Shown piece by piece: positions 22,271-64,000 of a stretch of 64,000 nt of DNA (positions are counted from its first letter, which is position 1; each line of letters starts with the position of its first letter). The position numbers were made by a program, and so were the translations under genes. The stretch comes from Blasia pusilla (lineage: Eukaryota): NCBI GenBank assembly GCA_050084515.1, contig CM114271.1, positions 20,894,001-20,958,000 of the forward strand, given 5' to 3'. The notes beneath the pieces are model-generated. The model did no database searches and was not told where the DNA came from. It saw nothing but the letters and a program-made list of their open reading frames with translations.

Positions 22271-25200
22271 TTATACATATATATACACGCCCGGTAAGTA
22301 AAAAAAGTGCCACATGTCATAAATTCCTAAACTCAACAACACTAAACAACACGTGTCTAACTTTGAAGTTGTCGCCATGTCATAAACACTCCTCAAATTA
22401 TAGTATAGATTGGTTACATTATTGAGAATTATCCACGAGTTGTTTCCGTTTGACCATCCAAGCAATTGTTTTGCACTCTATGGAACCCCCAAAATAATAT
22501 CAATTTTTTCACCTCAACTTTAAAAGATGAAAGATTGCAAAGACAGAAAGGATCCGTTCATTTTATCAAAAAGGAATGGTGTCAGCGCATCAAACAAGCA
22601 TCCCAACTTCTGAATATAAAGATAGATCCCATACACCATAAGTAATTATGGTAGGGTTATAAAGTGTGGTAAAATAGGCATTCACTCAAATTAAAGTCAA
22701 GTTGGAGAAATTAGATACTTGTAATATTATAATTTTTATTTGATTATAAGGTTTGGTAAACTTGACTTTGATGCACATACTACAATTTATATCAATAAGT
22801 TTCATTTGTGTTGGTTATGTGGATCAGGATTTTATGTATTTGATTGAATTGCTCACAAGTTTGTATGCAAAATCTATGGTAGAATATGAATTTTTTGTTA
22901 AAAGAAATTGCGATGAATGGAAGAAGAAAAAGTTGTGCGCATAAACATCGTTGTCCACGTCAACACAACAAACATTATTGACCTTTTTGACATAAGTGTA
23001 AATCCGTACACATATAGAAATACACTCACACAAGTATATCAAGACATACAAAAAATATCAAAGTAAGAATATTATACACATCTAACTTTATTTTTGAATT
23101 TACATATCGTCATTAAGTTATATCCATCCTTTGCCATAAGGGAATCTAGACTATAATATCCAAGCTCCTACCAAACCCTAGAAGGTAGAGTATTCCCTAA
23201 ATAGGCTCAATATACTAAAGATGACTCTTGAAAGTTATCTCGTCATCTTTGATCCCTTAGGAAGAGCCAAAAAATACCTCCCCCAAAATTTAGTCAAAAT
23301 TGATAATCGACATATATATATATATAAAAGTTACCTAATGATTATCGACTCGATCAACATGTCGCATTTACTTGAGTGGGTAGAGAGGGAGAGTGTCTCC
23401 CCTTTAGATGCTTCTAAGGTTCTCCGGGGGAACCCCACTTTCCCTATTGTCCCCCTTTGGCTCCTTAATTTTGGCCCTCAACCCAAATATAGTTTGCCAC
23501 CCGCAGATCGTTGTTTGACTAGTTATCCATCAAGATGGCTTAGCGGAGGCTTCTTGCAGCTTATGCAACTCTTGGCTCCCCAAAGGCATCTTGAAGCTTG
23601 GAAGTGCAATTCATGCGTCTCATGGCTAGCGCCCATCTTGACTCATCGTTTGGCATCTTATGGTTGTTTTTCCGCCCTTTGCGTTTCATGACTAGTCTCA
23701 TAGTGTCTACACAATCTTGACTACTCATGTGTTTGTCGCTTCTTGCCCTTGATTTGACGCTTGGCTCCAAGTTCTCAAACCTTGATTGCTTTGCCTTTGT
23801 CCCTACAAGTAGTTATGCCCTTGCCTCACCTAAGGTCAATCACAAGATACATACGCGTCTCACCTAGCATTAGTCCCACAGCCGGTTTTGCCACCCTTCC
23901 AAGTCTTGCAATTAGCTATTCTAGGCTTTGACTTTGGTGGTTCACACCAAGGTCTTTCCTCCTTGGACCCATAATCATGATTATCTTTTCAAGTTTCCGC
24001 CAGCGTGAATGCAATAGACTTAGCTATTTGCGACGCAATGCCTACTATGAATAGGCCCTGTGCATCCATTCGATATTTGAGGAAGACCTCCTACTTTGCC
24101 TTAGATTGGATAAAAGGTCTATAAGGAGGAGCTCCTCATCCTTCTTATCCTTGTCCTCACCCTCACTGTAGGAGGCATCATCTAAATGGTTGTCTCCTCC
24201 AATAAGCCAATCTAATAAGAGATATTGATCTAGGTCAATCTATGCTTTTACGAGCACCCGTCACCACTCCTACCCCATCGGGATGTGGTATGTCATGCTA
24301 CACCATGAACGAAAAGTAGAGAAAGTATCTCTATTGAAAATAAAAAATGGAAGACACTACATGTCATTGAGTACTAGAGTTTCAAGAATGCTCAATAGAT
24401 GGTAAGACATCCTGATCAATGAAGATCTCCTATCAAGTCTTTCGGCCTCGTAGCACATCATCCGCAATCTCACAAGTTGAGAACTGCCCATACCTAGTAA
24501 ACTGTACAAGGTACCCACATAGTGGATTAAGTCTTCTTAATTTCAAACTAACCATACCTACATGATAAGGGTTCTACAAGGTAAGAAATACTTAAAAAGA
24601 CATGTCAAAATATCTCCTCTCCTCCTCGACTAAAGTACAGAGTCCCCGTTGGCGTTGGAGGCAAATTACATGCCTCCACTAACCATTGTCCGTTTAATCA
24701 CTCTCTCTATAGGTCTCCTATTGGTACCCAATCCTTCTGTAAGATAGAAACCGATGATGCGTTGTTGTAGTTTGTGTATGTTGGTGTAGCCATCACCCAT
24801 GCCTTCCACTCCTCATTTGACTCTTGATCCCCTCGCACTGTCTTGCGAGCCCGTTGTTTTTTACGATGACGACGATGCAAATTGAACATACTAGTCAATT
24901 TTTGCATGCAATCCAAAAAAAATAAAAGTTTATTCTTGAAACATAGCCATAATGATGTTCCATATGACTTGACCATAGGTAAGTGGTTATTCCACCCATA
25001 CATCACACGCATTCATGCATTACTTGCATACCTATAGCACGATTAGGCGAAGATCTTCGCATTTGATGTCGATCTATAATCACAAGCACTCAATAAAATG
25101 CTCCTTGACCTCTTGAATCAAATTTTCCCTCACTCCATGTATGGAGACGTTATTTCCTTTTTGTTCATAGTTGACCCTACTTCTGTAGCAATCGCCTTTG

Positions 25201-40935: not shown

Positions 40936-41658
40936 TGTCACATCTGAGTAGCGGATAGGCTGAGATCTATCGTGAATAGTGCATAGGAGCCAGCAGACTA
41001 TCTTGAGTGTAACTTTGTCCCACAGTGTCAAATGAGGTTGAGGATAGGTCCATTGTATCAGGAACATTGTTTTTGATAACTTTCATGTTGAGGTCTTTTA
41101 CAGCCGGATGACTTGTTGACCAGGTCACCCGCCCCTGGTAACCTGTGCGCGCAGGGTACCAAGGGGAGGGCTATTTTTAGGGGTAGAGCCTTTTGGCTCT
41201 TCCCAACCCTATATAAGAGAGGAAGGTGGCTTTCCAAAACTATCTTTCTCATGTTGGGCCGTTGGAGCACCTCCCTTGTATGTGTGTGAGATAGGACTAG
41301 GGTGCTAGCGTTTGGATTCCTTGATAGCACAAGGTGGACGAGGCTCGATATGTCGATGTAGATTGAGGAGTGGAGTTTTAGGCCGAGTGTGCCGTTTTTA
41401 CTACTCTTTATTTTTACATGAGAAAGATGTCAGGGGGCTGGTGGGAATTCGTTGTTTGCAGGTAGGCAAGCGAGTTGCCTTGGTTGGGAGCCCGTGGAGA
41501 CGTTGGTTGGCGTCGTAGTTGTTGTGTGATCTCCATATATATGTATGAGTTGATTTTTGTACATGTGTGGATCGACCCGTGTGTGGGGTAGATCGGTGTT
41601 GTGTGGTGTATATGTGACCAACGATGTAGGTTGTGTAGCGATATGTATGCGCACGACA
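40936..41658 (+). mobile_element. Solo LTR (723 bp) with 4-bp TSD TCCA
   Basis: TGTCAC...GCACGACA flanked by TCCA on both sides; internal TATATAAG at about 41210; last ~40 bp resemble the right end of element B. Confidence 0.7.
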
Positions 41659-44600: not shown

Positions 44601-45043
44601 ACCACATAGTATATCACCCGATAGGAGGTCGTGGTGAGGATTCGCGCGGGAGATCCTACAGATGAGTCCGTGGTGCGAGCCAAGGCGATAGTGAGTGATG
44701 TAGAGTCCTACGACGTCTTGGTTGGTGGAGCAGTGTTATACCCGATGGGGTTTGCCCTGGATTAGTGGGAGCAATCAGCGTCCTACACACCAAGATGGCA
44801 CTCAGGTGATGGGCGCCTAAGCTCATTACCCGTTCGATTCACAGATGCAATGATGGAGCAACGGCCAGGAGAGATGGCTACCTTAGCAGCATTTAGCAGT
44901 GCCATCACTTGACCTAGTGATTTGATTGAGGGACATGTCCATGCAGAGGATACTCCCGTTCCTGAAATTTCTATGGAGAGGAGTGTTATGGTAGCCGCAT
45001 CATTCTGTGGGGAGAGGTGCCGCTCTGGGGCTCTTGCACTCCT

Positions 45044-45890
45044 ACGTGATGATGTTGCTAGGCGCGTCTCACTACGACATGTGGCGCAATTACGCCTACG
45101 TTTTCCCGACTTATTGTTTGCGTCCGCGGTACAGGGGTACAAGAGTTCCCTACCGAGGGATATTTCGTTGCTGGGGGCGCAGAACTTAGAGCGGGTAGGG
45201 ACCATTGATTTGGTCATTGCCGGTTGGCCATGTCACGGCCAATTGAGTGCTCGACGAGGCAGCGGGTTGGATGACACTCGGTCCAAGTTGTTTTGGGAGA
45301 TGTTGAGGATCTTACGACACTTGCAGGAGCACCTGTCTCATTCTCCAACCTACATTCTGGGGAAATGTGCCGATCTTAGGAGACTCTAGGTCACGGGTGG
45401 TGACAAGTGCTCATCAGGTGCGTGCCTAGATCGGCCCTGCAGTGTTCTTGGATGCGGCGAGTGTAGGTTCTAGAGCCCATCGCCCGCGTCTATGGTGGAG
45501 CAACTTGGTGCCCCATGCGGTGTTACGGAGGGCGTATGCGAGAGTGGAGCGCCCCTCCCATTTGGTAGTGGATTCCATTATGGATCTAGGTCGTCGATCA
45601 TAGGCAGTGAGGCAAGATGATCGACCACCGTTGACTGTGGTCAACAAGGTAGACAGGTCGCAGGAAGCCTTGCCCATGTTTGTGAGTTTACCCGCTTCCT
45701 ATGCATACAAGGAGGCCGGTCGTGGCTTGGTTTGGGATGACCAGGTTCAGTGGTTGGTGGAGCCCAACGCCGACGAGAGAGAGCAAGAAATGGGATTTCC
45801 CACAAGAGTGATGGCAGTACCGTCAGTGTCAGAGGCATCACTACGCCATGTCTTGGGTCAGGCAATGGACGTGAAGTGCTTGACATGGAT
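45044..45890 (+). pseudogene. C5 cytosine methyltransferase (DNMT3-like) domain of element A, motif I deleted
   Basis: DLVIAGWPCHG (IV), frameshifted YILENVP (VI), RAHRPRLWWSNL (VIII), EREQEMGFP (IX), RHVLGQAMD (X). Confidence 0.88.
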
Positions 45891-48800
45891 CCTCCGCTTG
45901 GGAGTGGCTGAGCAATGCCATATGATATCGCGGCAGATCATAGTGGTTGCGTTGGTGAGCCCCATGCCTACCGGGACGGTGGAGGTGGCTGGGGGCGAGA
46001 CCCGAGGAGATCTACACACCAAGGGAGATTGGGAGAGATACCCTTGGACTTCTTGGGATGTTTTGCAGGCACGCCAGGAGATGATAGCCAGAACATCGAG
46101 CGTGGTTTAGGGCACTGCACATGGAGGAGATCAAAGTTTGCAGTTGGCTGCAGGAGAGCGGCCGAGTGTTGTTGTTCGAGACAAGGTTGCACCATAGCAA
46201 CCAAAGATAACCGCACCGGAGAGTCCTACCGTAGTCACGATGGAGACTTGGGAGCCAGATATGGGTCCTAAGTTGACAGGAGGAGAGTGGCGCCGGATAC
46301 GTCAATTCCTCAGGAGTTATAGGAGCTGCTTTGCGTTTAGCATGGAGGATTTGGATATGCTGAAGGGACCGGGGATCCGCATTGAGTTGTCGAGTGATAC
46401 GCCGATCTTCCAACAACCCTACAGGTACAGTGACATGGAGAGGGCTCTGATTCAGAGTAAGAGCCAAGACTTGGTCGGAGCAGGACTAGAGGAGATGTTG
46501 CATGGGAAGTATGCATCTGCCACTGTCATGCCTGCCAAGAAGGATATGCATGGCAACTGGACGGATAGGCGGATGTGTGGGGATTATCGACCTATCAATC
46601 GTCAGACGAAGTCTGCTAGGTATGCCATGCCCACTCCTGAGGAGATCTTTGATCACACAAAGGTCTTTAGTTCATTGGATTTGCAAGCCGGATACCATCA
46701 GCTGCCTATGAGATTGGAGGACAGGCATAAGACAACGTTTTGGGGCATCGATCCTCACGGGAAGGATTGTTTGTATTAGTGGCGGTTCTTACCATTTGGT
46801 TTAAAGAATGCCCCGGATGAGTTTCACAGGGTCATGGATAGGATCTTGGCCGGTCTAGATTTTTCTAGGTGTTATATTGATGATATTGTAGTCTTTAGCG
46901 CGACGGTTGAGGAGCATGAGCGACATCTAGAGGAGGTGTTTCGACGATTCAATTACATGGGCTGAAGCTACATCCAGGCAAGTGGAAGTTCTTCTACGAC
47001 CAGATTGAGTACTTGGGTCATATGATATACCCAGGGGGCCTTGGTGTTCAACAGACGAAGGTAGAGGCTATCTCACGCATTCCACGCCCTACAGATGTGA
47101 GCCTTGTTCGTGCATTCATGGGATTGGCGAACTTCTATCGGCGATACGTTAAGGGATTCAGTTCGATGGCGAAGCCGCTTACCTTGCTGACCAAGGTGGA
47201 TCATGAGTGGCACTGGGAGGATGAGCAAAAGCAAGCATTTCAGTTGCTTAAGGAGAAGTTGACGTCCGCGCCCATCTTGAGGAGACCGATCAGGGGGCGT
47301 CCTTTCCAATTGCACACAGATTGGAGCATGTTGGGGCTTGGAGCGGTGCTCATCCAACATGATGATGAGGGTAGAGAGTTTGTGGTGGCTTACGCTAGCC
47401 GCTCTAACAATGCTGCAGAGGCGAAGTACAACTCGTATGAGGGTGAGTGCTTGGTTGCGATGTGGGATGTCGTGCATTTCAGGTGTTACTTATTCGACAA
47501 CCCCTTTACCATCATCACATTGTTGAAGGAGTATGATTTTCAGGTGGTACATAGACCCGAGACGTTCAACCAGGATGCAGATGGGTTGAGTTGTAACCCA
47601 TGCGCGAGTCAGCGAGATGCGTCTGGAGCTCAATGGCATGGAGAGAGTGATGAGGAGTCAGTGCCAGGATGTCATGCGTCAGCCTATTTAGGCATGTTGG
47701 CTATGGAGAGCCAGAGTGTGGAGACTTCGATGGCAAGGTCTAGTGGAGAGTCCTTGGATCCCGAGGGAGTGAGGAGACGACGGGTGGTCGAGATATTCAT
47801 GATGATGGAGTAGTCTTGGAGTACCTTCGTATTGGAAGCGTTGCGAGCACCGTGGATGCTAGAGAGCAAGATCGGATCCTATAGCAGGCCATATGGTTGT
47901 CATGACCATACGTATTATGTCGTAGAGTATAGTGTGCTAGTAGATGCAGTACCTTATGTAGGGCCATAGTGTCTAGGTAGAGATGCGGTTTCATACATAG
48001 GGTTGGGGGTTACTCTATTGAGGGTTTGGCTCGGTTGTATGTGATTCTATACGTGTTTTATGACAGTAGGTCTTTCACAAATTTCACTTAAAAAATTAAC
48101 GTTGATTGATGGTAGCTTTGATCGTGGTTCAGTAGGATCTGGTTTGGGCTGTTTGTGTACTCAACCGTGGATGTTCGTGGTTTTTGGCCTATATTCGAGG
48201 TGGGAATGTGGTACATGGTTGGTTGGGAAAGAAGCGCCTTGCTAAGAGCTTTCCAACGCGCTTTAGATTGCCGGATTTTGTCAAGGGAGTTAGAAGTTAT
48301 CAAGGATTGAAGATTCTGGTTCGTGTTCGACGGTTCTCTGATGTGGAGAGCTTGGAGTGTGGAAGCTCTGTTGAAGTTCATCCAGATCGGGTGAGAGATT
48401 CTTGTTGCTACCTGTTTTGTGATCTCATGTGAAGCTTTTTGCTTGAGTGTGTGGAGCATTGTGGATTTCGGTGTGCATGAATATGGGCGGAGCGCTCTCG
48501 GATTTGCGATTCTAGAGGTGTATGGACAACAAGTTTGTCTAATTTTTAGCTCAGAGTACAAGGCTCGGTTGTAGTTGATATTTCGTGGAGAGATAGCTAT
48601 GGTGGCCAATTGAATTCTGGTTGAAACAAATTCAATTTTGGTTGAGGATTTTTGGAGTAATTGCTGATCGAAATTTTGCAGACTAGCTCAAGGTCTATGG
48701 TGGACAACAGATCGGAGGGGCTGGTCCGTTGGTGACTCATCCGTTGTTGGAGACACCTATCCCGTTGGGGGCGCCCTGGTTGGGCCTCTCTCCATAATGA

Positions 48801-51800
48801 AGCATGGCGAAGCGTGGCAAACGGGGCATGTCTCGAGCATTTCTCGGCGTTTTGAGGCTTTGAGGCAACTCGTGGTAGCTCGGGGCGAGTGGGCGTGAGA
48901 GGTGGAGTAAGGAGCAAGCAAGAAAGCTTGCTTGCTTGGGCGTGAGGCAGTTTTTGCAGGATTTGTGAGTTGAGTGTTGCATAACTGGTCACCCATCTTT
49001 GGGCTATTCTGCGTGGAGGACGCTTAACTGTTGAGTTTTTAACTATGCCAGTGTACACAGTGGTGTAGCTCATTTGGTGCTATTCGGAGATGTGTTAGGC
49101 GCTTTATGCATCTTGGGTTTTTGGTTGCTGGACCTCTAGCGCATGGTACGGTGTAGCCTCTCCATGCAAGTGATATTTTCAGGTGCTAAGAGTGCAACTA
49201 GCACGTCATCGACCAGCGACGGAGTAGCTATTGCGTTAAATTGTGTGGTGGGTTCTGTGGATTCAGGAGGCGCCACGTTTGGTGGATTATGTTACCTTGA
49301 TTTCCATTTGCGATTGGAGGGTTCTTGTTGGACTTCCTGTGTTTGGATCCCCTCCATCATTGCTTCTTGCTTGCGCGCCCATTGTTAGGGTTGACGCTGA
49401 TTTCGAGATTAGTTTTACTCCTGTGTCCTACCGGTAGTGAGGCTCGAGTGATGACCAGTAGACCGTGGGAGGCTTCTTGTGGTGATGACAGGTTAGGTTA
49501 CCTACACCCATAGCTAGTAGAGATAGAATAGTATAGCGAAATTGACGTCAGTTGGTTGCTTAGTGGTGGTGATTTGGTGGTGGTGCGGCATCGGCGTTGG
49601 TCATCACAGAGAAGTCTGGTGGTCTGGTTGGGGACCGTGGTGCGGACACTGGTGGTTTTACACGGAGTGGATTGAGGTATCGACTACCTTTTCCACTTCC
49701 GACGGTTGATGAAGAGGAGGACGGGGGTGTTCCAAACACTCTGTCTTCTACGTTGTTATCGAGTTTTGCAGCTCCATTCATTGAGTTGGAGGACTTTATT
49801 TGATACGTGGTGTGATATGCAGATGTTGCGGAACGCCACATTGTTTACACCTTCTTGGCTTGGAAGGGGTTGTTTCAGCACTTGGAGGGACCGCCCATGG
49901 ATGATTACCATGAGTTTAGGAGGGACCATGCTGCTAAGATTGAGGCGTGGAGACAATATTGGTCTCCAGGCTATGTGTCTATCATCGATGGTGGTAGTGG
50001 TAGTAGAGCTCTTACTGTGTCAGCCAGCATGATATTGAGTGGTGCGAGTACAAGCCAGAGTGGGATTACCAGTGGAGGTACCCATGGAGGTACTAGTGGA
50101 GGTACTAGTGGCCCACCATCATTCAGCCCGATTGCAGAATTCTTCAAGAGGTTGAGGAAGAACTATCAGGGAGTGAAGATAGAGAAATTGAGGAGTCTTC
50201 AGGAATTTGAGCGAAAGACTGGTGAGAGTCTTCATGAGGCATACACTCGTATGTGATGCTTGATTTCACTTACCCAGGGTGTGACTGAGGCTTAGGCAGT
50301 CCAGTTTTGATATGGGATCTTGGACAGAGAGTTGCACCACAGGGTACGTGATGGTACTGTTATGAGTGATGATTCATCCACATTGGTCCATGTGTTTGCT
50401 CTATCTGAGAAGATTAAGCTTAACATGGTGGAGGAGAGAGTGGTGAAATCCGGATTCAGTAGGGATACAACTACTACTTCTCGTGTTGAGCAGTCCATCT
50501 CACAGTCTCGTAGTAGTGGTGGTGGTAGTAGTAGTGGGAGTCGTGGGGGGTACTCATGACCTCAGTCAGGTCCTAGAGGGACACTTGCGCAGAGACCATT
50601 TCCTTCATTTACTGCCCCGTAGCAAGGACAATCATGTTGGACATGTGGAGGTGATCATGTCAGGAGGTTTTATCCCCAAGAGGATGGGAGACGGACTTTG
50701 GAGGATGAGCCTCAGTCGGCCCCAACTCAGTGTGATCATTGCGGGAGACCAGGTCATCCTCGAGAGCGTTGCTTTGATCTTCATCCTGAGTTGAGATCAG
50801 GCCGCGGACCGTGGTGGAGTAGCTCCAAGAGGCCGAGGTGGTAGGGGTGGTAGAGGTGGACCAGCGGTTGGAGAGCCTACAATGGCTATCCCTACCACTA
50901 CAACAGAGTCAACTATGGCTGCCAGGATTGAGCAGTTGGAGGTGACGTTGGCTACTATGGCTGGTATCCAGCATAGAGCAGGTTTGGGAGCAGGGGCTTC
51001 TACCTCTTATGGAGGGGATGATCTCTCTTATATTGCGAGTGCAACACAGGTTGAGGCATCAGCTGCAGTTACGAGAGGAGCCACGTGGTGCTACTGTGGA
51101 GTTGGACCCACAGAGGGGTGAGGCTGGGAGGCAGGCTAGGCTTCCCCAGTCATTCTTGTTGTCTGAGGTGCTTAGGACTCCATCCATGGTTCCCTCGACC
51201 TATTGAACCTATTGAGCCTCCCAAAGGAAGATTAGTGATTCCCAAAGAGAGAAAGAGGCATCTACATTGTGTGTAGTAGACATGGATGTGCAGTATTGCG
51301 GATGGCAACTTCAGTGTTGGGATCCCCATTGTTTTCAGCCACTAAGTTGATGGCCTTAGGAGTTGACTTAGCTCCTGTATTTCAGCTAGCACTCACGTTG
51401 TGTGAACGTGGGAGTGTTGCTGGTACACGTGCTGAGGTGGATGAGGGTGTTGTGATGGAGCGACCCTCTATATCAGGTGTAGCATTGAGTACCAGTGCTA
51501 CTTGGCAAGCAGCAGCCGCGAAGATTGATGCATTACCAGCCCGGCCAGCCATTGATCGTGAGAGGCTTACACTTGGTGTATGTATGTTGGACAACCGCAG
51601 TGGGATATTCCGATTGGTGAGTCCTACAGGACAGGTATATAGACGAGATAGAGTCTTGTTAGACTCTGGTGCCCAACCTTTGATGTTGGGAAAGGTGGCA
51701 AGTATTGGTTTGGGTATTCGGAGGTCAGAGCTTGAGCCTTGCCCATTCTAGATTCAAACATCACTTGGAGGAGCCAATGATAGGTCTCAATTCATGACAC

Positions 51801-52382
51801 GGGAGAAGTTGTCTGTAGAGTTGAGACCAGATCATGCGACTAATAGCTCCCAGTTGGGAGTACATGCAGTGGTCACATCAACTGAGTCGTATGATATACT
51901 AGTTGGAGGAGTAGTATTGTACCCGATGGGTTTTCAGATGGACTACTGGATTGAGACAACGTCTTATAGACCTGGTTGGCAGTCCGGGGATGGACGTTCC
52001 TATGAGATTTATTTATGGGGCTCGACTAGGAGGGTCTTCCCCAACAGTGTTAGCATCTGTGGCTGGTTTTAGTGGAGTAGTCACTTGGCCAGGAGACTTT
52101 TTGGAGGGTAATCTTTTTGCTATGGATTCTCCTGTGCATAAGGAGGTAGAGGAGGTCCCTAGTTTTGCAGCAGTGGCATCCTCATCGTTGGATGTGCCAC
52201 TTTGGAGTTCACGCGGTGCATTACGGCAGGAGGCTGATCGCCTAGTGCAGGAGGCTTGGTGTGAGGCTTTTATACCTCACGAGGAAGAGGAGGCCCCACG
52301 GCGGACTCCTACTTCTGGTCCAGTTGGGTTATCCGGATCCCCTTTGGATACTACACTCATTGTATGGCAGTATCCGCCAGAG

Positions 52383-53325
52383 GGCATTTGTGTGTTAGAT
52401 CTCTTTGGTGGGTTTAGCATTGGTTTGGCTGAAGTGTTGCAAGCCGGTATTCCTATGCGGAGATACGTGTATGTGGAGCGAGATGAGACGACCCAGAGAG
52501 TCTCATCCCGACATATTGGTCAGTTGATGCGGAGATATCCTAAGTTGTTGCGGCCATCAACTATTCGTGGGTACCAGCGTGCTTTGCCGTCACACATTGC
52601 ATTGTTGGGGGCGCAGGAGCTTGAGAGGGTTGGTCCTGTGGATTTGGTGATTGCTAGATGGCCATGTCAGGGTCATACACGTGCTGGTCGTGGTGAGGGA
52701 TTACACAACCCTAGGTCTCGATTGTTTTGGGAGATGTTACGGGTGTTACGACATCTTCAGGTTCATCAAGCACGTGCTCCAGCTTACATTCTGGAGAATG
52801 TTCCATTGTTGGATGACACTCGGATCCAGATGATGGCGAGTGTTCATGAGGTGTGGTCTTGGATTGGACCAGCGGTGTTGTTGGATGCAGCGCGAGTTGG
52901 CTCGCGTGCACATCATCCACGCTTGTGGTGGACAAACTTGTTGCCTAGGGAGGTTCTACGTCAAGCATATGATGCAGTGCAGCGGGATCCTTGCCTTGCA
53001 GCGGATAGTATCTTGGATACTTGGCAACTTTCTCAAGTGGTGAGGGTTATTGATCGGTCACCCATGGCAGTGGTGAATCGTGTGGGCCAGCCTAGGATGG
53101 CACTACCCACATTTGTGAGTTTTCCCTCGTCACATGCCTACAGGAAAGGTGGTCCCGGTCTTGTATGGGATTCTCATGTGCGACAGTTGGTGGATCCTAA
53201 CGCTGATGAGAGAGAGAGAGCGTGTGATGGGATTTGCTACTGGTGTGATAGCGGTTGCTTCCATTTCAGAGGCTTCACGACGTCATGTGTTGGGTCAGGC
53301 CATGGACCTGAATTGTTTGACCTAG
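52383..53325 (+). pseudogene. C5 cytosine methyltransferase (DNMT3-like) domain of element B
   Basis: Motifs in canonical order: VLDLFGG (I), YVERD (II), DLVIARWPCQG (IV, catalytic Cys), YILENVP (VI), RAHHPRLWWTNL (VIII), ERERVMGF (IX, after a frameshift in a GA run), RRHVLGQAMD (X). Confidence 0.93.
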
Positions 53326-56300
53326 ATTATGAGTCTTGGTATGGCCGAGCAGTGTCGACTTCCGACTATGTCGATGGGTCTTCCACCCCTTGTGATGAGC
53401 TCGATGGCTATCGGGACGGTAGAGACATCGGCTGGGGGCAAGGAGAATAGTATTTTGCATCCTTGGAGTAAATGGGATGTAATGGCTAGGCATGTGGAGT
53501 TGGTTGCTCATGCTGGTGGAGAAGTTTTTTGCTCAGATGATGGTGTAGCTAAGGGTGTACCATCTTGTGAGGGGGTTGCATAGCAGCCAATGGTGTCATC
53601 CTCTCCCTCTAGTGTGCGAGTGGAGGAGACTTGGGAGCCATTACTTGGGCCCAAGCTTACGGGAGGTGAGAAACGACGCTTGACACAATTCCTACGTGCT
53701 TATAGGAGTTGTTTTGCCTTTAGCATGAAGAAGTTGGGTGCTTTGGTTGGACCCGGTATACGGATTGATTTGGCTAGTGATTCGCCAATCTTCCGTCGTC
53801 CCTACCGATATAGTGATATGGAGAGGGACCTGATTCAGAGTAGGACGTTGGACCTTTTGGAGGCTAGATTAGTGGAGTTGTCGCATGGAGAGTATGCATC
53901 AGCCACTGTCATGCTTGCTAAAAAGGATATGCATGGCAACTACACGGATATGCGGATGTGTGGAGATTAGCATCCTATCAATCGATAGACCAAGGCCAAT
54001 AGGTATGCCATGCCTACACCTGAGGAGATCTTTGATGTGGTGGGATAGGCAAAGATTTTCAGTACTTTGGATCTTTGGGCAGGATACCATCAGTTGACGA
54101 TTCGAGAGATTGACAAGGCCAAGACAACATTTTGGGGTGTCAACTCTCATGGCAAGGATTGTTTGTACCAGTGGAAATTATTACTCTTAGGGTTGAAGAA
54201 TGCACCTGCCGAGTTTCAGAGAGTGATGGACAGGATCCTAGCATGGTTGGATTTTGATCGGTGTTACATTGATGATATCTTGGTGTTCAGTAACACGGTG
54301 GAGGAGCATCAGATACATTTGGAGATTGTGTTTGAGCCGTTGAAAGCTCGTGGTCTACGTTTGCATCTAGGAAAGTGTAAGTTCTTCCATGAGGATGTTG
54401 AGTACTTGGGTCATAGGATCTATCCAGGTGGTTTGGAAGTTCAGCAAGCAAAGGTGGAGGCTATTGCACTTATTCCTCGTCCGATAGATGTGAGTAGAGT
54501 TCGCGCATTCATGGGATTGGCGAACTACTATCGGAGGTATGTGAAGGGATTTAGTGCTATGGAAAAGCCTTTTTACCAATTGTTGAAATCAGATCAGGAG
54601 TGGCATTGGGGAGATGATCAAGAGAGAGCTTCTGTGGAGCTGAAGGCCCAGTTGGTGGCGGCGCCTATCTTAAGGAGACCTATCAGAGGGCGCCCATTTC
54701 AGTTACATATTGATTAGAGTAGGTTGGGACTTGGAGCGGTGTTGACACAACATGATGATGAGCACATGGAATTTGTGGTGGCCTATGCTAGTCGTTCGAA
54801 TAAAGCAGCGGAGTCTCGCTATAGTTCATATGAGGGAGAGTGCTTGGCAAGAGTAGTGTGGGCTGTGGCACACTTTAGGTGTTACTTGTTTGGCACACAC
54901 TTTATCCTTGTTATTGATCACCAGCCGCTCAAGTGGTTGATGGAGTCTGACAAGCTTACATGGAAGCTTGCATGGTGGGCTCTTCTCTTACAGGAGTATG
55001 ACTTCCAGGTGGTACATAGACCTGGAGTTGCCAACCTTGATGCTGATGGGTTGAGTAGGAACCCATGTACTAGCCAAGAGGATGCAACTGGGGCTAGATG
55101 GCATGGCGAGGTTGATGAGGAGACGGTGCCAGGTTGGCATGCATCTGCCTTTTTATGTTGGTTAGGGGTGGACTCTAGTATGGAGGACCACATGACATCT
55201 TACTCTAGTCAGAGGGTAGATGGCCAGTCTTCAGATCCTAAGGTTGGAGATGGTGGTACGGATCAACGTGATATTCATGATGATGCGTTGGTGTTGGAGT
55301 TCTACGGACTAGTAGGGTGCCACGCATAGTGAGTGCCAAGGAGCAAGACCGTGTTCTTCAACGTGCTAAGAGGTATCCATTGGAGGGAACACATATTCTC
55401 CGTATGTGGGAGGATGGTAGAGTACGAGTAGTGCCGCATTTGGCTCAGAGAGAGCGCATTGTGCGACATGCCCATGAGGAGTTGGGAAATTTTGGGGTAA
55501 AGTGTACGTATAGCTTACTCCTTGGTCACTATTGGTGGCGTGGCATGCATACTCAGGTGCAGCAGTTGGTGTCATGTTGTTTGGTTTGTGACCGGGTGAG
55601 GGCATCATTCAATGCCCCTATACCACAGTTACATCCCTTTCCTATTATGGGGTTGGGTTACCGTTGGAGTGTGGACTTTGTGGACCGTTACCGTTGATTG
55701 TACGATATCATTGATATGTGTTGGTGATGGTGGAGCACTTCTCCAAGTGGATTGAGTTGGGGGCATTACCTGACAAGGCAAGTGAGGGAAGGGCATATGT
55801 ATTTCTTGATAGAGTGCTTAGTCATTTTGGTGCACCACCTGAGATGTTGACCGATGAGGGTATAGAGTTTCAGGGTGAGTTTCAGTTCTTGTGTGACAAG
55901 GTGTTGATTGGTCATCGGACCACGTCTCGAGATCATCCAGAGGCGGATGGTTTGGCTGAGCGTGTGGTTCAGACGGTGAAGAGGGCATTGTGCAAGTATG
56001 GCCTAAAGAAGGGGCATCTTGGAGACTGGGATATTCAGTTGCCATGGTTATCCATGGGGTATAGGTTCAGTTGTCATGGTTAGCCATGGGATATAGGTTT
56101 AGTCGCCAAGCATCCTTGGCTTCCTTCTCACCTTATTTTCTGTTATACGGCCGAGATCCAAACTTGCAAGCAGCAATTTGTTAGGAGTCCTATAAGGTGG
56201 TGAACCTTGAAGACCCAAAGATGTGGATGAGAGTGTGTTTTCAGCGGGCAGAGCTCTTTCGGAGAGTTATGCCAACAGCCTTTGAGAATCTTGCCATTGC

Positions 56301-56599
56301 TCAACACAGGGATACGTTGCGGTATGCAACCATTCAGGGTGGAGGTTATTGACCATCGATTTGTAGGTTCCATGTGGGGGACTATATCTATTTGCAGCAT
56401 ATTGCACTCACAACGTTGGATGTGATGGCAAGCCGCACTATTTTACGAGTACGCGAGGTGTTAGCTTCTGGAGTTCTCATGTTGGAGGGTCGTGATGGAG
56501 TTGTTTGGAAGAACCATGTGCGTAATTGTGCGCGATGTCATCTTCCAAATGTGGATGGTATTGTTGACCCAAGCTTAACCATGATACGTGCTAGTTTGA

Positions 56600-56740
56600 G
56601 GTGTATGTTGTGTGGGTCTGCTAGTAACACAACTCGTATGTTGGTGTGTGATTGGTGTTCTAGGGGTTGGCACATGATGTGTTTGACTCCACGTATGGAT
56701 GTTGTTCCTACTGGAAGGGGGATTTTTCCTCGATGTTCTT
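56600..56740 (+). other. PHD finger at the integrase C-terminus of element B
   Basis: CMLC...MLVCDWCSRGWHMMCLTP..VPTG..F PRC: C4HC3 pattern with one Cys decayed to F. Confidence 0.85.
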
Positions 56741-57805
56741 AGGAGGGGTAGATGACTTGATCTTTGCATGATATGGATTACAGATGTGCGACTAACGATG
56801 GGGCAACCTAGCACCCAACCTTCTGATTCGTGCACCCACGAAGGTGTATGGCATGTAGTAGATGTATAGGGCTACCTGGGAGTTAGAGGGACCTAACCGC
56901 CAGTAAGGGGGGGGCGAGTTGTGGTACACTTATGTTTGTGGATGCTCTCGTCTATGTTATGTATGTAGGTGAGTATGGTATGTCAACGATGTATGTTGTA
57001 TGACGATGTGGATTCGCCCGAAAGCTATCATGACCATACGGATTATGTCGTAGAGTATGGTGTGCTAGTAGAGGCCATACCTTATGTAGGGCCGTAGTCT
57101 CTAGGTAGAGATGCGGTTTCATACATAGGATTGGGGGTTATTCCGTTGAGGGTGACTTTTCCAGTAGGGCCCACTCTTAGGTTGGAGCATATAGTGTGGA
57201 GTGCACTCAAAGAACTGTTAGTTCTTTGAGTTGAGCCTGTTGCGTTGGGAGTTAGCCTTGGTAGTGAGTAGAGCTCTTGGCTATGGTGGTTCCCGCAAGC
57301 TTTGACCTAGATTCTCCCATCGTGGAGTGGGTTTGGCTTGATTGTAGGTGATTCTATACGTATTTTATGACAATAGATCTTTCATGGATTTCGAGTTGTG
57401 GTACACTTGTGTTTACGAATGCTCTCGTCTATGTTATGTATGTAGGTGAGTATGGTATGTCAGCGATGTATGTTGTATGACGATGTGGATTCGCACGACA
57501 CGGTTTGTTGGGAGGGGACACATGTTTTGAGGGTTTGGGAGGATGGTAGAGTACGCGTAGTGCTGCATCCTTCGCAAAGAACATGACTAGTGCAACATAC
57601 CCATGAGTAGTTGGATCACTTTGGGATGAAGCAGACGTATAACTTGCTCCAGATTCAGTATTGGTGGTGAGGCATGCAGACAGACGTTCAGCTAGTTTGT
57701 TGCTAGGTGCATGGTGTGTGATCGGGTCAGAGACTCCACAGTTGCATCCATAACGGATCATGAGCTTAGGGTATAGATGGAGTTTGGATTTTGCTGGACC
57801 TTTGC

Positions 57806-58826
57806 TGTCGCGACCCTCATAACCAAACAACACCAAATACGCGCCAAGCGAAACATCAAAACTCAAAGGAACTCACGCCGCGAGATTTGCGCTTTGGAGA
57901 GGCGTTTGGAAGAGTCTCTTGGAAAAGCCTAAGAGACGAAACGTGGGACAGAGTTGTGCGTTTCATGTGTTAGTGGTCACAACCAGGAAACCTAGACCAA
58001 ACGCGAGCCGAGACTTGAGATGAGTTGAGTCTTGAGGTTGGTTGCCAAAGAGGTGAGAACCAGTTTGGAACACGACTAGCGTTTGGGAGAATCTGTCTGT
58101 GTTTAGGACCATAACGTTGAGCTCCAAGATGCGTTTGGGACAAGTAAGGGCGCGTTGGAAAGCTGATCTCAAGATGCTTCCAACGCATCAAAGATAGTAG
58201 CAAACGCATAAGTACAGGCTGAGATATTGGCCGAAAACGATTCAAAGAGCAATCGGGTTGAGGGCCAATTGGAGAGGCCAGGTGTCTTTCCTAAATGGGA
58301 GGCCCCGGAGATCCCCAGAAGTACTAGTAAGGGGAGTACCTTCTCTGAGATGTCTCGGGAAACAAACCCCACTTTGGGCGCCAACGGCGTTTTAGAGGCA
58401 CGGATGAAACGGGAGTTTGCGCGAAACCCAAACCCAAACCTGATCCAAGGGAGTGGACTTTGTACGCCACACTTGGATTCCAATCCGAGATTCACTTTGT
58501 GCGAGTCTTGGTGAGGAACTCATTGGATGTTCATCGGACAGTTGGAACCGCTAGGCGCGAAATGCCGTTTCAGGTTCCTGAACCGACCAGAAAGTCTGTC
58601 CCAAGTCTTTCGAGACTTGCCCGTGTTGGAAACCGCGAAACTAGGAAGGATGAGCTTGAAGAGAGAGTCCGAGACGAGAACTCGGAAAGTAATCCCGCTG
58701 ATTGATCCAAGACCCGACTAACCAAAGTGCGTGTTTGGATGCAGATCAGCGTTGAGAGCGTGACCTACTGAACGCACGCTTCCGCAACAAACAAGATTAA
58801 CGTTCAAGGAGAGTAGGCGCACGAAA
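57806..58826 (-). mobile_element. Solo LTR (1021 bp) of another family inserted in the integrase of A, 5-bp TSD TTTGC
   Basis: TTTGC|TGTCGCGACCC...GCGCACGAAA|TTTGC; removing it restores GPLPLTKRHSRYVLVMVEHFSKW. Orientation inferred from the minus-strand end GGGTCGCGACA. Confidence 0.85.
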
Positions 58827-59040
58827 TTTGCCTTTGACAAAGCGTCACAGTCGTTATGTGTTGGTGATGGTCGAGCACTTCTCGAAGTGGATCGAGTTGG
58901 TTGCATTGCCTGACAAAGTGATTGAGGGAATAGCATATGCCTTCCTAGACCGAGTGTTGAGTCATTTCCGCGCACCGGCAGAGGTTTTGACAGACTAGGG
59001 TACCAAGTTTCGTTATGAGTTCCGGGCCAAAATATCTCTT

Positions 59041-62000
59041 ATCGCCCCCCTTGCTGGTGGTTAGGTCCCTCTAACTCTAGATAGCCATCTATCCCTACCT
59101 ACCACGTCCCACTCCCTCAACTGTCCCCACTGCAAGCCATACTTGCGCAATCCTCTCTTCATCGTCTGTACCACTCTCTCCGCGAACCCATCCGCCTCAG
59201 GATGATCTCTGGATGTGGTGTGGTGATCTATCAACGCGTGATCACACAAGGCCTAAAACTCTCCCCTAAACTCAATACCCTGGTCAGTCCACACCTCCGC
59301 CGGTGCACCAAAGTGACTAAGCACACGATCTAGAAACACATAAGCTGTTCCCTTGCTCGCCTTGTCTGGTAGTGCCACCAACTCTATTCACTTGGAGAAA
59401 TGCTCCACCATGACCAACACGTACCTATGATGACGCCCTGTCAATGGCAAAGGTCCCGCAAAGTCTAAACTTCACCGATAACCTAAACCCATAATAGGCA
59501 ACGGATGTAACTGCGGAGTGGGAGCATTGAAGGATGCTTACACTCTGTCACATACCATACATCGGGCCACAAATTGCTGTATCCCAGTATGCATGCCGCA
59601 CCACCAATACTGAACATGGAGTAAGCTGTAAGTACGCTTTATTCCAAAATGTCCCAACTCCTCATGGGCATGTCGCACTACACGTGCTTCTGGGAAGGAT
59701 GAGGTACCACTTATATCCTACCATCTCCCCATACCCACAAAATGTGAGTCCCCTCCCACCTGAACCTCCTGGCTCTCTGTAGGATCCAATCCCGCTCCCT
59801 AGCACTCACTGTACTTGCTATGGCGCCAATGCGCAAGAACTCCACAATCTCCACGTCGTCATGGATATCATGACCACCCATCGCCTCCTCACTATCCTCC
59901 GGATCCAAAGACTCATCATCCAACCTCACTAGTGGAGTCATCACCTGTGGTTGACCTGCCATAATCAACCAACAAAGATAGGCAGATGCATTCCAACCGG
60001 GCACCATCTCCTCATCACTCTCTCCGTGCCATCGAGCTCCGGTGTCGTCTCTCTGACTCGGATATGGGTTACGACTCAGCCCATCCGCATCCTGGTTTAG
60101 CCAACCTGGCCTATGAACCACCTCAAACTCATACTCCTGTAGTAATAGAGCCCACCTGGCAAGCTTTCCCGTAAGCTTGTCGGACTCCATCAACCACCTC
60201 AATGGCTAATGATCAATGATAAGCGTGAAAGGGTTGCCGAATAAATAGCACTTGAAATGTGCCACGGCCCACACTTCAGCCAAGAACTCTCCCTTGTAGG
60301 AGCTCTACTTCACCTCTGCAATGTTGTTCGATCTGCTCGCGTAAGCCACAACGAACTCCCTCTCCTCATCCCCCGAGTAAGCACCGCTCCTAGACCCAAC
60401 ATGCTCCAATCCGTATGTAATCGAATGGGCGACCCCTAACGGTCTCTGTAAAATGGGTGAGGACGTCAACTGTCCTTGAGCTCTGAAATGCTCGCTCCTG
60501 ATCATCTCCCCACAACCAAACCTGATCAAGTCTCGTCAACAAGGTCAAAGACTTTGCGATCGCACTAAAACCCTTGACATACCATCGATAGAAGTTTTCC
60601 AGTCCAAGAAATGCTTAGACTCGACTCACATCTGTAGGACATGGAATCTCCGCAATAGCCTCTACCTTTGTCTGCTGAACGCCTAACCCACTCGGATATA
60701 TGGTGTGTCCCAAGTACTCAATCTGCTCCTGAAAGAATTTGCACTTGCCATGATGTAACTTCAGTCCATGAAACTGCAATCGCCAAAACACCTCCTCCAA
60801 GTGTCGCTCATGCTCCTCAACCCTGGAACTGAAGATAAGAATATCATCTATGTAACATCGTACAAAATCTAAGCCAGCCAAAATCCTATCCATCACTCTT
60901 TGAAACTCTGCAGGCGCGTTCTTCAACCCAAATGGTAAGAACCGCCACTAATACAAGCAATCTCTCCCAAACCGATCTATCCCCCAGAATGCTGTCTTCT
61001 CCCTGGCCTCCAACCTGATAGGAAGCTGATGATAGCCAGCACGGAGATCTAAAGTCTTGAAGATCTTTGCATGCCCTACCGCATCAAAGATCTCCTCAGA
61101 GAGTAGGCATGGCGATCGATCGACCTCGCCAAATGGTCGGTTGATAGGACGGTAATCTCCACACATCCGCCTATCCGTCCAATTGCCATACATATCCTTC
61201 TTCGCCAGCATGACTGTGGCAGATGCATACTCCGCATGTGATAACTCCACAAGTCTTGACTCCTGCTCTGAATCAAGGCCCGCTCCATATCAGAATACGT
61301 GTAGGATCGACAAAAGATCGGCGTATCACTAGCCAACTCAATCCGTATCCCGGGACCCTTCAACGTATCCAAGTCTCTCATACTGAAGGCAAAACAACTG
61401 ACATGCCCTCTGAGAAACCTATGAACTCACCGTCGCTCTCCTCCTATCAACTTGAGACCTATCACAGGCTCCCAAGTCTCCATCATGATCTCACTCGGAG
61501 AGGACGCAACCTCCGGCTTTGGTTGCTATGTAGCAACCCTAGCCACCTCCGCAACAGCCACTCCACTATGACCTCCTACACCATGCTCCACATCCGAAAA
61601 ATGAACATGTGCTTCTCTAGCCGCCTTCGCACTCTCTGCTCAAACGACGTCCCAGGAAGTCCATGGGTGCCTATCTCTCCTCGCTCTTGCCCAGCCAATG
61701 CTTGTAGAGACCTTGTAGGCAGTGGTCCAACTCGTGGACGTGACGGCATGGATGACACTCGCATCCGTCTCTACTCAGCCATACCTAGGCTGACTATCCA
61801 TGTGAGATAGTTGAGGTCCTTCGCCTGCCCCAACACGTGTCTCCGTGATGCCTCAGTCATCCGTGGCACCGCCGTAGAACCGATAGTGAACCCCATGGCG
61901 CGCTCACGCTCATATGCTGTAGGCTCCTCCAATGCGCCGGTCACCTCATCCCAAATCATGTGTGGCCCTCCGTGACGAAAAGCATGGGATGCTGGGAAGC

Positions 62001-64000
62001 TCACCAACGTAGGTAAGGCTGCCCTCAACTCCCCCACCCTATTGGTCATGGCCAACGTTGGTCTATCATCCCGTGTCACCACCTACGATCGACGCCCTGA
62101 GCCCAAAATAGCATCCATTGTGAGATGTGGTGCTCTCTGGACTCCATCGTATGCTCGACTGAGTACCTCTGATGGTATCAGGTTTGTCCACCACAATCGT
62201 GGATGATGAGCACGTGATCCAACTCTCGCCGCATCTAATAACACAGTAGGTCCCAACTAGGACCTCATCTGATACACATTCGTCATTACACGTGCACGAG
62301 TGTCTCCCAACAATGACACGTTCTCCAAGATGTAGGTTGGAGAACATGTCTGACTCTCCTGCAAGTGTTGTACTACTCGTAGCATCTCCCAAAACATCCA
62401 TGAACTCGGATCCTGCAATCCAAATCCTCAGTCAGCTGATGAATGACCCTGACATAGCCATCCAGCAATCACCAAATGAATGGTGCCAACTCTATCCAGA
62501 TCCTGCGCCCCCACCAAAGAGATGTCGGCGGGTAGTGTATGCTGATATCCCCGTACTGCAGATACCGGAAACAACTCAGGGTACCTCTGGACCAATCGCG
62601 CCACGTGACGTAATGATACTCGCCACGCGGTCTCATCTCTCTCCACATAAAGGTACTGATGCACCCTTATGCCCGCCTGCAATACTGCAGCCAATCCGGT
62701 GCGAATCCCTCCGAAGAGATCTAACACCCTAACACCCTTCTCTGGGCACTGCCACACAACGGGTGTGGTGTCCAGTGGGGTCAACGTCTCCACTCCAAGA
62801 GCCCGATCGCCACGTGACTCTCGCTGCTCCGGGATAAAAACATGACTCCACGCCTACCTCACGAGGTCGTCGGCACTCCTCTGTAGCTCTCGAGTCGTAC
62901 CCCACAATGGTGAAGAGGTCTCGCCAACATGGGAAGAGACACCCGCCATGGCTTGTCTCTCCGTGGGACTATCCGCCAGGGACATCCTCCGCATGTGCGT
63001 TCCCCTCCAACAACTCTCCTGGTCCGCTAACACTACCTGTGAAATCCGCCAACGTGGTCATTGACTCGCCTCGTGATCGACCACCTCGTCCCGCAAACTG
63101 CACGGGTAACTGACTCATCTAGCCGATAAGCAACGGTCTCCTCCCACAAGTCTAGGATGAATCCTAGAGGATATAACACTATACTCCCCACCAACACATC
63201 GTACGACTCAGCTGGTGTCGTAATCGCACGTGTGTGCACCATAGCACTATCCGTCGCATGCTCTGGCTGGACTCTCACAACTTTCTCCTGTCGAGTCATA
63301 TACTGCATGGGTGACACGCCCCCAATTGAGTTCCGTATCAGGAAGGGACAAGGCTCAATATCGGCCTTCCGTAACCCCAAGGCTAAACACGCCGCCTTCC
63401 CTAACATCAAGGGTTGCGCTCCCGAATCAAGTAGGACGCGCTGCAGGTGGTATATTGTCCTCGTTGGATTAACCAAGTGAAATACTCCAGCTCGGTTATC
63501 CAGTAACACTACTCCAAATGTCACCACTGCTCACTCTATGGCCGGTCAAGCTAGCATATCTACCAACTTGGCCGCCGCCGCATGCCATGACTATGTGGGG
63601 AACGTCCCGAGCACCGGCTCTGAGGGCAAGTCCACCACATCCTCAACTACCTCTGAACAAGAAGCAATCATCTCTCCACGCTCACACAACGTGGCGGCCA
63701 GCCGGAACACCTCAATTGGTCGCCAACTCTATGGCGGAAAATAGTGGAGTCTGACTCACTCTGGTGGCCACCTCCAACACTATGGTCGACACTGACTCCA
63801 CTCGAGCCGGCGTAGGAGTTGTCACTCCAACTCCTCGTGACGTCGACGTAGGTGCTTGAGCTGTAGGCACCGCTGGTTGTCGAGGCACCATCGATGGTGT
63901 GTGTAGTGCCTCGGACAATGTGAATGACTGTGGAACCCTGGCGTGCCGCCCATCCGTCCTCTCTGGTGGGTCAATCTCAACTCCACCTCTCGGTGCCTCT
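59041..64000 (-). mobile_element. Ty3/Gypsy element C (degenerate PR-DNMT-RT-RH-IN), continues beyond the window
   Basis: VLLDSGAQP (63033-63527 ORF), DNMT 62740-61790, RT CGDYRPIN/YIDD, RNase H, IN AERVVQTMK; PPT AAGGGGGGCGA at about 59042-59052; no 3' LTR. Confidence 0.92.
61790..62740 (-). pseudogene. C5 cytosine methyltransferase (DNMT3-like) domain of element C
   Basis: VRVLDLFGGIRTG (I), YVERD (II), IAGWLCQG (IV, P>L), YILENV (VI), RAHHPRLWWTNL (VIII), ERERAMGF (IX), RRHVLGQA (X). Confidence 0.9.

Follow-up and report, generated by a model that had tools for sequence, protein, structure and literature searches.

Retroelements of the DIRS, PAT and Ngaro type, which depend on a tyrosine recombinase, have repeats in the order A-coding-B-A-B, as described in the passages on these elements in PMC7192593 and in a figure legend of PMC5890265. 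A methyltransferase is also found in some DIRS elements, such as SymbioDIRS-Dnmt3, which is described in a part of PMC5890265. The stretch of Blasia pusilla DNA that is analysed here, called the window and 64,000 nucleotides long, contains a decayed Ty3/Gypsy-type retroelement (element B) in which the repeat blocks follow the same order, X1...Y1-X2-Y2, where X corresponds to A and Y to B. The first-pass annotation of this DNA had named A1-ORFs-B1-A2-B2 as the PAT/Ngaro-type layout, in agreement with the passages of the two papers that deal with it. Element B differs from PAT, Ngaro and DIRS elements in having a DDE integrase, a Gypsy-type RT/RNase H and TG...CA ends with a target-site duplication (TSD). 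In addition, the equivalent of B1-A2 in element B is formed by an LTR end and an LTR start, and the relatives of B carry that LTR whole. B resembles PAT/Ngaro elements in its geometry alone.

By content, the closest described element is KnitGypsy-Dnmt3 from Klebsormidium nitens, as presented in a section of de Mendoza et al. 2018 (PMC5890265). B shares with this element and with Ty3/Gypsy elements (Metaviridae) the domain order, the TG...CA ends, a short TSD, a G-rich PPT and a DNMT3-type methyltransferase in pol, to the extent that these are described there. It differs from them in the lack of a matched LTR pair, in the extra 109 nt between the PPT and the 3' LTR, in the PHD finger after the integrase and in the host, which appears to be a bryophyte and not a charophyte.

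A third system to be considered is the 2-LTR circle. In plants, LTR-LTR junctions with small indels are recognised as the sign that the ends of extrachromosomal LTR-retrotransposon DNA have been joined (passages of PMC9324142), and in HIV the transcripts that cross 2-LTR junctions put U5 directly upstream of the 3' U3 (section on such transcripts in PMC11680205). B resembles the circles portrayed in these parts of the two papers, with a U5 end that meets a U3 start, few extra bases between them and a palindromic core, and in B too a U5-like sequence stands directly upstream of the 3' U3, as in the HIV transcripts of the latter section. Unlike in a circle, the junction of B is fossilised in a copy that has integrated into a chromosome, the first LTR retains no more than its U5-like part, and the 5' LTR shows the reciprocal loss. 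A limited full-text literature contained no paper on split direct repeats in an element with a DDE integrase, which is weak evidence. The term "split direct repeats" is met, in the portions of the papers at hand, in general TE studies or in studies on tyrosine-recombinase and other non-integrase elements. The papers found there on LTR-LTR junctions and eccDNA are plant mobilome papers.

On balance, and with confidence somewhat better than even, we regard B as a one-off aberrant product of reverse transcription, made from a template that carried an LTR-LTR junction, in an otherwise ordinary element of the Ty3/Gypsy type.

Element B and its neighbours

Three related retroelements, A, B and C, occupy 41-64 kb of the window (Table 1), and their coding DNA is 66-78% identical to one another at the nucleotide level. 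C is cut on its 3' side 16 nt past its PPT, where it is fused to A. B is the only copy of its family that has both ends inside the 64-kb window. BLAST of the X, l and Y blocks against the window gave no match outside B, and no B-like coding DNA is present anywhere in window positions 1-41000. The largest ORF of B (51915-53450) has named homologues from Calypogeia fissa, Sphagnum spp., Marchantia polymorpha and Riccia, and identity reaches as high as 72-76% with homologues other than these named ones. In a prokaryotic contig collection, a 19-nt block that is conserved between B and C had 0 exact matches, and a protein-guided scan with the DNMT ORF led to 21 candidate stretches, none of which was confirmed.

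Table 1. Coordinates in the window of element B, its parts and the related elements around it
Feature	Position	Strand	Remarks
Element A		+	B nested cleanly inside; 3' end beyond window
Element B	47898-57500	+	decayed Ty3/Gypsy-type
Element C	59029..64000	-	5' end beyond window; joined to A's integrase core at 59028/59029
Fragment E, decayed LTR-like unit	22932..23598	-	TATA block and Y-like end in common with A's unit
LTR-like unit, 5' side of A	41175..41658	+	TATA-containing block 41175-41338; Y-like block 41547-41658
TSD, left copy TGGT, in host element A	47894..47897	+	
Truncated 5' LTR of B	47898..48085	+	X1 47898-48065 (179-nt deletion) and l1 48066-48085; without Y
Junction J3	48086..48095	+	LTR homology stops; ACTT and AAAAAA next
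Decayed internal coding region of B	49642..56742	+	Pfam; tblastx to A
gag-like	49642-50397	+	
DNMT3-like (C-5 DNA methylase)	51915-53450	+	upstream of RT
RT	54049-54717	+	RVT_1 E=2e-24
RNase H	54718-55329	+	RT_RNaseH E=2e-27
Integrase zinc domain and core	55284-56083	+	Integrase_H2C2 E=2e-13 (55284-55697); rve E=6e-8 (55715-56083)
PHD finger	56353-56742	+	downstream of integrase
Pre-PPT block and PPT	56849..56914	+	PPT AAGGGGGGGG at 56905-56914
Y1	56915..57023	+	extra copy of the LTR's last 109 nt, straight after PPT (junction J1)
GC spacer, head-to-tail LTR-LTR junction J4	57024..57025	+	
Complete 3' LTR of B	57026..57500	+	X2 57026-57372, l2 57373-57392, Y2 57392-57500
12-bp hairpin in X2	57205..57231	+	inverted self-match; within stretch missing from X1
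TSD, right copy CGGT	57501..57504	+	
Solo LTR-like unit, related family, in A	57806..58826	+	1021 bp; starts TGTCGCGACC, ends GCGCACGAAA

Pfam models place the pol domains of B in the order RT - RNase H - DDE integrase, which is that of Gypsy elements, and the DDE integrase that the earlier annotation had recognised is matched by the Integrase_H2C2 and rve models. No tyrosine recombinase (Phage_integrase) was found in the 39 scanned ORFs among the 73 that overlap B (at least 55 aa), the other 34 being mostly minus-strand ORFs or ORFs that overlap scanned ones. The best PDB matches of the methylase ORF are structures of DNMT3A and DNMT3B, and element A likewise carries a methylase domain. The DNMT3-like domain of B has FGG, PCQ and ENV, which we take to be conserved residues of the catalytic motifs. 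A Gypsy element with a DNMT3-like domain and a PHD finger, apparently in bryophytes, is relevant to the interplay between transposon and host methylation. The reading frames of B are broken many times, so this copy is dead. A foreign insert in the leader of B (48086-49641; 1555 nt vs 670 nt in A) was considered and rejected, as the leader has no repeat or Pfam match; against the solo LTR-like unit it shows a single 31-nt inverted match, which is not colinear.

Repeat blocks and their divergence

The X...Y-X-Y repeats of the first-pass annotation exist, with every block at the position given for it or at most 5 nt away, and the similarities are far above chance. In BLAST of the blocks against the window, X1 (47900-48025) and X2 (57028-57153) are 91.3% identical over 126 nt (E=2e-47), the remaining part of X1 with the block that follows it (48022-48085) is 85.9% identical to 57329-57392 over 64 nt (E=3e-16), and Y1 (56915-57021) is 94.4% identical to Y2 (57392-57498) over 107 nt (E=2e-43). 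Global alignment of X1 and l1 with X2 and l2 gives 167 matches in 188 positions and 21 mismatches, 16 of them transitions, and it has exactly 179 gap columns, in line with the internal deletion of 179 bp that had been proposed for X1. The edges of this deletion share a 4-nt overlap, GGGT (microhomology). Both Y copies are present as proposed, but each is 109 nt long and not 104, since it begins 5 nt earlier, with CGAGT (56915 and 57392); their global alignment has 102 matches in 109 positions and seven mismatches. The repetition of about 20 bp behind X is also real, l1 (48066-48085) and l2 (57373-57392) agreeing at 15 of 20 positions and differing by transitions at the other five. The end of the X+l repeat and the start of the Y repeat fall on one nucleotide, a C that belongs to both. 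Between Y1 and X2 lies the 2-bp spacer GC, and the PPT abuts Y, its G8 run (56907-56914) adjoining Y1, both as had been described. Besides the X, l and Y pairs, no further repeats were found inside B.

On the reading favoured here, the split repeats amount to one whole LTR and a second LTR that is severed at one point, and the internal region occupies the gap. A 5' LTR without Y is followed by the internal region up to the PPT, by Y1 with GC and by a complete LTR, and the 5' LTR lacks exactly the 109 nt that are found in excess, as Y1, before the 3' LTR. B does not have two matching direct LTRs, its 5' LTR consisting of X and l only, with the 179-nt deletion and no Y.

Divergence does not differ between the X/X and Y/Y pairs (Fisher p=0.22), which indicates that both repeat pairs are of about the same age and that the duplications date from the insertion. 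This result bears on a rearrangement after insertion, in which B would have started with normal LTRs, or with tandem LTRs on the 3' side, and would later have lost the 5' Y together with the PBS, as well as the inner X-l. B is an old and decayed copy, with 6-11% divergence between its repeats and many broken frames, the deletion with 4-nt microhomology shows that its 5' LTR has already lost sequence, and a large deletion junction joins C and A at 59028/59029. Even so, rearrangement is an unlikely origin of the layout. One breakpoint would have to be common to two independent deletions, a coincidence with a chance of about 1% by a rough estimate (within about 1 nt, in an LTR of about 500 nt), deletion alone does not reach a junction of Y end and X start in a normal integrated copy, and the equal divergence of Y1/Y2 and X1/X2 places the duplication of Y at insertion. 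The divergence also argues against an artefact of assembly, such as a mis-join or a spurious duplication of reads from repeats. Related repeats are nested in this region, a setting in which assemblers err, but divergence between the copies is 6-11% and consists mostly of transitions, with no identical duplicated stretches and no N, and the flanks of the insertion in A match, so that an artefact is hardly credible here.

Limits of the insertion and extent of the LTR

The first-pass annotation took the start of X and the end of Y as the integrated ends, with a TSD. The ends TGTCATG...CACGACA are confirmed, while the TSD proves imperfect, TGGT on the left and CGGT on the right agreeing at three of four positions with one transition. 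The termini of the 3' LTR of B itself read T(G>A)TCATG...CACGACA. B has TG...CA termini and a TSD that falls in the range of 4-6 bp. The left half of A ends CCATATGGT, and the related element C carries a single GGTT at that place. When compared at the insertion, A reads CCA-TAT-GGT / B / C-GGTT and C reads CCA-GGA-GGTT, so A does not lose bases and has 4 nt in surplus. This surplus, left when the halves of A are laid on C, indicates that B was inserted in one piece, from the start of X1 to the end of Y2. Among the flank pairs tested, only the left flank of X1 and the right flank of Y2 correspond. Three other units were rejected on mismatched flanks, namely a solo LTR of its own made up of X2-l2-Y2 (AAGC vs CGGT), a mini-element Y1...Y2 (CGAGT vs CGGTT) and an element X1...X2 (ATGGT vs ATAGA).

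Relatives in the window show which unit is the LTR. The solo LTR-like unit in A has a perfect 5-bp TSD, TTTGC (57801-57805 and 58827-58831), and at its site the flanks of A overlap by 5 nt in C coordinates (59447-59451). At its start, 8 of 10 positions are identical to the start of X, and its end agrees with that of Y. The LTR-like unit on the 5' side of A has a Y-like block that can be aligned over the full length of Y (score 53 vs a shuffle maximum of 35) and has GCGCACGACA as its end. The unit precedes the first gag homology with B in tblastx by 670 nt. Its position by itself suggests that it is A's own 5' LTR, the 3' end of A being beyond the window. Fragment E is homologous to this unit of A (score 68 vs a shuffle maximum of 36), and its upstream block is homologous to the solo unit (score 76 vs a shuffle maximum of 41). 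Past the Y-like end, similarity between A and E is no longer colinear and is limited to a single short match whose offset differs, and no second X-like copy is found behind the Y-like block at the 5' side of A. Since the relatives have contiguous units that start like X and end like Y, the integrase-defined LTR of B corresponds to X2-l2-Y2, and by this comparison the true LTR of B is judged to be X + l + Y, of 475 bp (57026-57500), with the ends TGTCATG...CACGACA.

The canonical LTR could instead be Y-GC-X, and B a permuted 2-LTR circle that retained l2, as a copy of the primer site, at its junction and was opened at Y|X, inside one LTR. A single aberrant junction, l2|Y2, would then be enough, as PPT|Y1 and X|l look canonical, and this unit would also have TG...CA ends, because Y starts TGTGG and X ends ATGACA. 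That arrangement is nevertheless improbable: the agreement of B's termini with the TSD-proven unit at 57806-58826 and with the ends of A and E would have to be a coincidence, and a cut of the integrase type would have been made at an internal site that resembles an LTR-LTR junction by chance.

The PPT of B abuts Y1 and not the start of the 3' LTR. The pre-PPT block of B is 88% identical to 59045-59086 of C (minus strand), where coding DNA has about 72% identity, and the 16 nt of C past its PPT start with CGA, which is Y-like, and not with TG, which is X-like. This is compatible with PPT|Y as a family trait, and past the CGA that it shares, the cut end of C is uninformative. The layout could then be heritable, X...Y-X-Y being normal for a bryophyte lineage of DNMT3-carrying Gypsy elements and remade in each cycle: RT would build a Y-GC-X repeat that is preceded by the PPT and followed by a primer site, and the DDE integrase would open a circle or concatemer at the palindromic Y|X site. 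Such a scheme accounts for the contact of the PPT with Y1 in B and for the PPT of C, which too precedes CGA and not TG, for the 20 nt that follow both X copies at identical position, and for the equal divergence of X/X and Y/Y, as if both were remade every cycle. Retroviral integrases can cleave palindromic junctions of this kind, according to passages of PMC1905944, PMC1180852 and PMC11680205. We still hold heritability to be very improbable. The start of X and the end of Y are the true termini of contiguous LTRs in the relatives, and the Y-like block ahead of A's leader, with no second X-like copy after it, is not predicted by the scheme. The junction l2|Y2 would need a copy of the primer site to be kept at each circularisation, the block l does not start with TGG, and by reasoning the standard rules of reverse transcription, applied to the RNA of B, fail to give its ends.

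The 20 nt after X had been likened to a copied primer-binding site (PBS), a reading that is not supported in view of the same lack of TGG at the start of l, the continuity of l2 with Y2 and the motif comparisons behind the LTRs of A and E. The sequences after Y in A and in E share one 16-nt match, at different offsets, and 4 of 500 shuffles gave one as good. The sequence after Y in A was equalled by 387 of 500 shuffles against the start of X and by 219 of 1000 against the joined X1 end, l1 and leader of B; for E, the latter comparison was equalled by 182 of 1000. Against the leader of B, the counts are 331 of 500 for A and 274 of 500 for E. The sequence after Y in E was equalled against the X2 end with l2 by 28 of 1000 and 36 of 500 shuffles, and the sequence downstream in E was equalled against its own Y-like block, B, the Y-like block of A and the sequence after Y in A by 140, 191, 464 and 83 of 500 shuffles, respectively. 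These comparisons are not significant, none being convincing once multiple testing is considered, and the 7- to 9-mers common to A's leader and B are not colinear. The sequence of junction J3 has no significant similarity to Y or to the leaders of A and E. Behind X1-l1 there is no primer site of the TGG type; the closest TGG motif is 22 nt downstream (a candidate only), and the window contains no tRNA genes as candidate primers.

The head-to-tail junction and a proposed route to it

The first-pass annotation offered either a non-standard pathway or an aberrant copy. The second is favoured, and the first is opposed by the contiguous LTRs of the relatives, by the LTR-LTR junction and by the lack of a U5/PBS that could be replicated. 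The end of Y1, GC and the start of X2 follow one another at 57017-57035, with the same termini that were used for integration, and when the less mutated end of Y2 and start of X1 are put in their place the junction becomes the palindrome GACA-GC-TGTC. By analogy with extrachromosomal DNA, Y1-GC-X2 reads as a head-to-tail junction of the 2-LTR-circle type. Because a junction of LTR end and LTR start is not makeable by deletion from a normal copy, a circle or concatemer is expected in the ancestry of B.

The nucleotide shared by the end of X+l and the start of Y points to a single mechanism acting at a special point, which is most simply the end of an RNA. X ends in an AT-rich, TATA-like stretch 26-40 nt upstream of this l|Y point, at which transcription would start and the poly(A) site would also lie. 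Y is probably the U5 of B's LTR, and the A6 run four nt after l1 is possibly the remnant of a copied poly(A). In both B and C the PPT has CGA(G) at its end, and the first four nt of Y are CGAG, so that microhomology is available for mis-landing. The division of the LTR into U3, R and U5, the origin of the template from a circle and the succession of template switches are inferences, whereas the repeats, junction sequences, insertion limits, domain content and termini of the relatives were observed directly.

In the route that we favour for a one-off product, an ordinary cDNA would have been circularised (2-LTR circle) or concatemerised by end ligation, and the circle, or a tandem-LTR copy, would have been transcribed. 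The RNA would have had its 5' end at l|Y, and reverse transcription from the primer site would have yielded a strong-stop DNA of Y-GC-X-l-Y. Because R homology was slight or absent, this DNA would have landed on the CGAG beside the PPT and not on the 3' R, which would form PPT|Y1. The uncopied U3-R tail would have been gained last, by a switch to the 3' end of the RNA that would give X1-l1 and then the A-run. The product would have integrase-competent termini, and the DDE integrase would have inserted it into A with a 4-bp duplication. As its sequence reads, B is without U5/PBS beside the 5' LTR and thus would be unable to replicate again. Several rare steps count against this route (circle formation, circle transcription and two non-homologous switches), and so do the single mismatch in the TSD and the fact that B taken alone reads neatly as PPT|Y-X|l, with a 20-nt block of PBS length after both X copies. 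Routes through splice sites, autointegration or a single deletion were also considered by reasoning and rejected, as none of them yields all junctions.

If B is a one-off product, it is a rare chromosomal fossil of an LTR-LTR junction, which suggests that junction-bearing DNA or RNA, usually deemed a dead end, can re-enter reverse transcription and integration in a plant, and it would also record the positions of template switches. If the layout were family-wide, it would represent a new replication scheme for integrase-bearing retrotransposons, and a heritable layout would be the DDE-integrase counterpart of PAT/Ngaro, with natural integration from a circle junction. For annotation, B is a warning that a Gypsy element can come to show a block order resembling that of tyrosine-recombinase elements.

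The inverted self-match within X2 forms a hairpin with a predicted energy of -16.4 kcal/mol (z=-3.4), and 0 of 200 shuffles were equally stable. The hairpin lies just downstream of a CATATAG motif.

Methyltransferase domain and PHD finger

The DNMT3-like cytosine methyltransferase domain is encoded inside the pol region of two Gypsy elements, B, a decayed Ty3/Gypsy-type retrotransposon on the plus strand, and A, the related plus-strand element in which B is nested, and DNA homologous to this region is also present in C, a related minus-strand element that extends beyond the window end. The ORF of B contains recognisable FGG, PCQ and ENV residues, which we take to be conserved methyltransferase motifs, and the named homologues of the domain come from liverworts and mosses. 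The only Gypsy element with DNMT3 found by the literature search was KnitGypsy-Dnmt3, from the charophyte Klebsormidium (PMC5890265), and the search found no bryophyte case.

Downstream of the integrase core, B encodes a PHD finger, and about 820 nt of this region of B are missing from C. At this position, downstream of the integrase core, chromoviruses carry a chromodomain.

Features of the window, with strand, score and location (E, E-value; TSD, target-site duplication)
Feature	Position	Strand	Score	Remarks
DNMT3-like cytosine methyltransferase domain, B	51915-53450			inside pol region
DNMT3-like cytosine methyltransferase domain, A	44913-45389			inside pol region
DNA homologous to methyltransferase region of B and A, C	62137-62780
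PHD finger, B	56353-56742		E=6e-7	downstream of integrase core
Perfect hairpin, 12 bp, B	57205-57231		z=-3.4	inside LTR, in stretch missing from 5' LTR
1021-bp solo LTR-like unit, from a related family	57806-58826			in integrase region of A; perfect 5-bp TSD, TTTGC
Deletion junction	59028/59029			integrase core of A (+) joined to C (-)
MINDY-3/4 deubiquitinase exon-like ORF	6069-6881	-	E=1e-33
Reverse-transcriptase fragment of another retroelement	8978-9427	-
ORF with Myb/SANT-like domain	35985-36644	+

LTR hairpin and leader of B

The hairpin in the LTR of B has a CATATAG motif just upstream of it and could represent a structure of the R region or one close to the promoter. The leader of B (48086-49641), which runs from the 5' LTR to the first gag homology, has 1555 nt, and that of A has 670 nt. 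No homologue, repeat or Pfam domain was detected in the leader of B.

Junctions and strand composition of A, B and C

At the deletion junction, C breaks off 16 nt past its polypurine tract, and both the 3' LTR of C and the remainder of A are missing. The solo LTR-like unit in A is related to a minus-strand fragment at 23389-23598.

In A and B (40000-58000, plus strand), the coding strand is rich in G and T, and composition is strongly asymmetric between the strands, with GC skew from +0.14 to +0.30 and mostly negative AT skew. The GC skew reverses over C (58000-64000), which lies on the opposite strand. This asymmetry could reflect the composition of the family, or else editing or decay that acted on one strand.

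At 40745-40880, just upstream of the 5' LTR-like unit of A, is a series of short, imperfect GTCACCGTCAACGG-type repeats.
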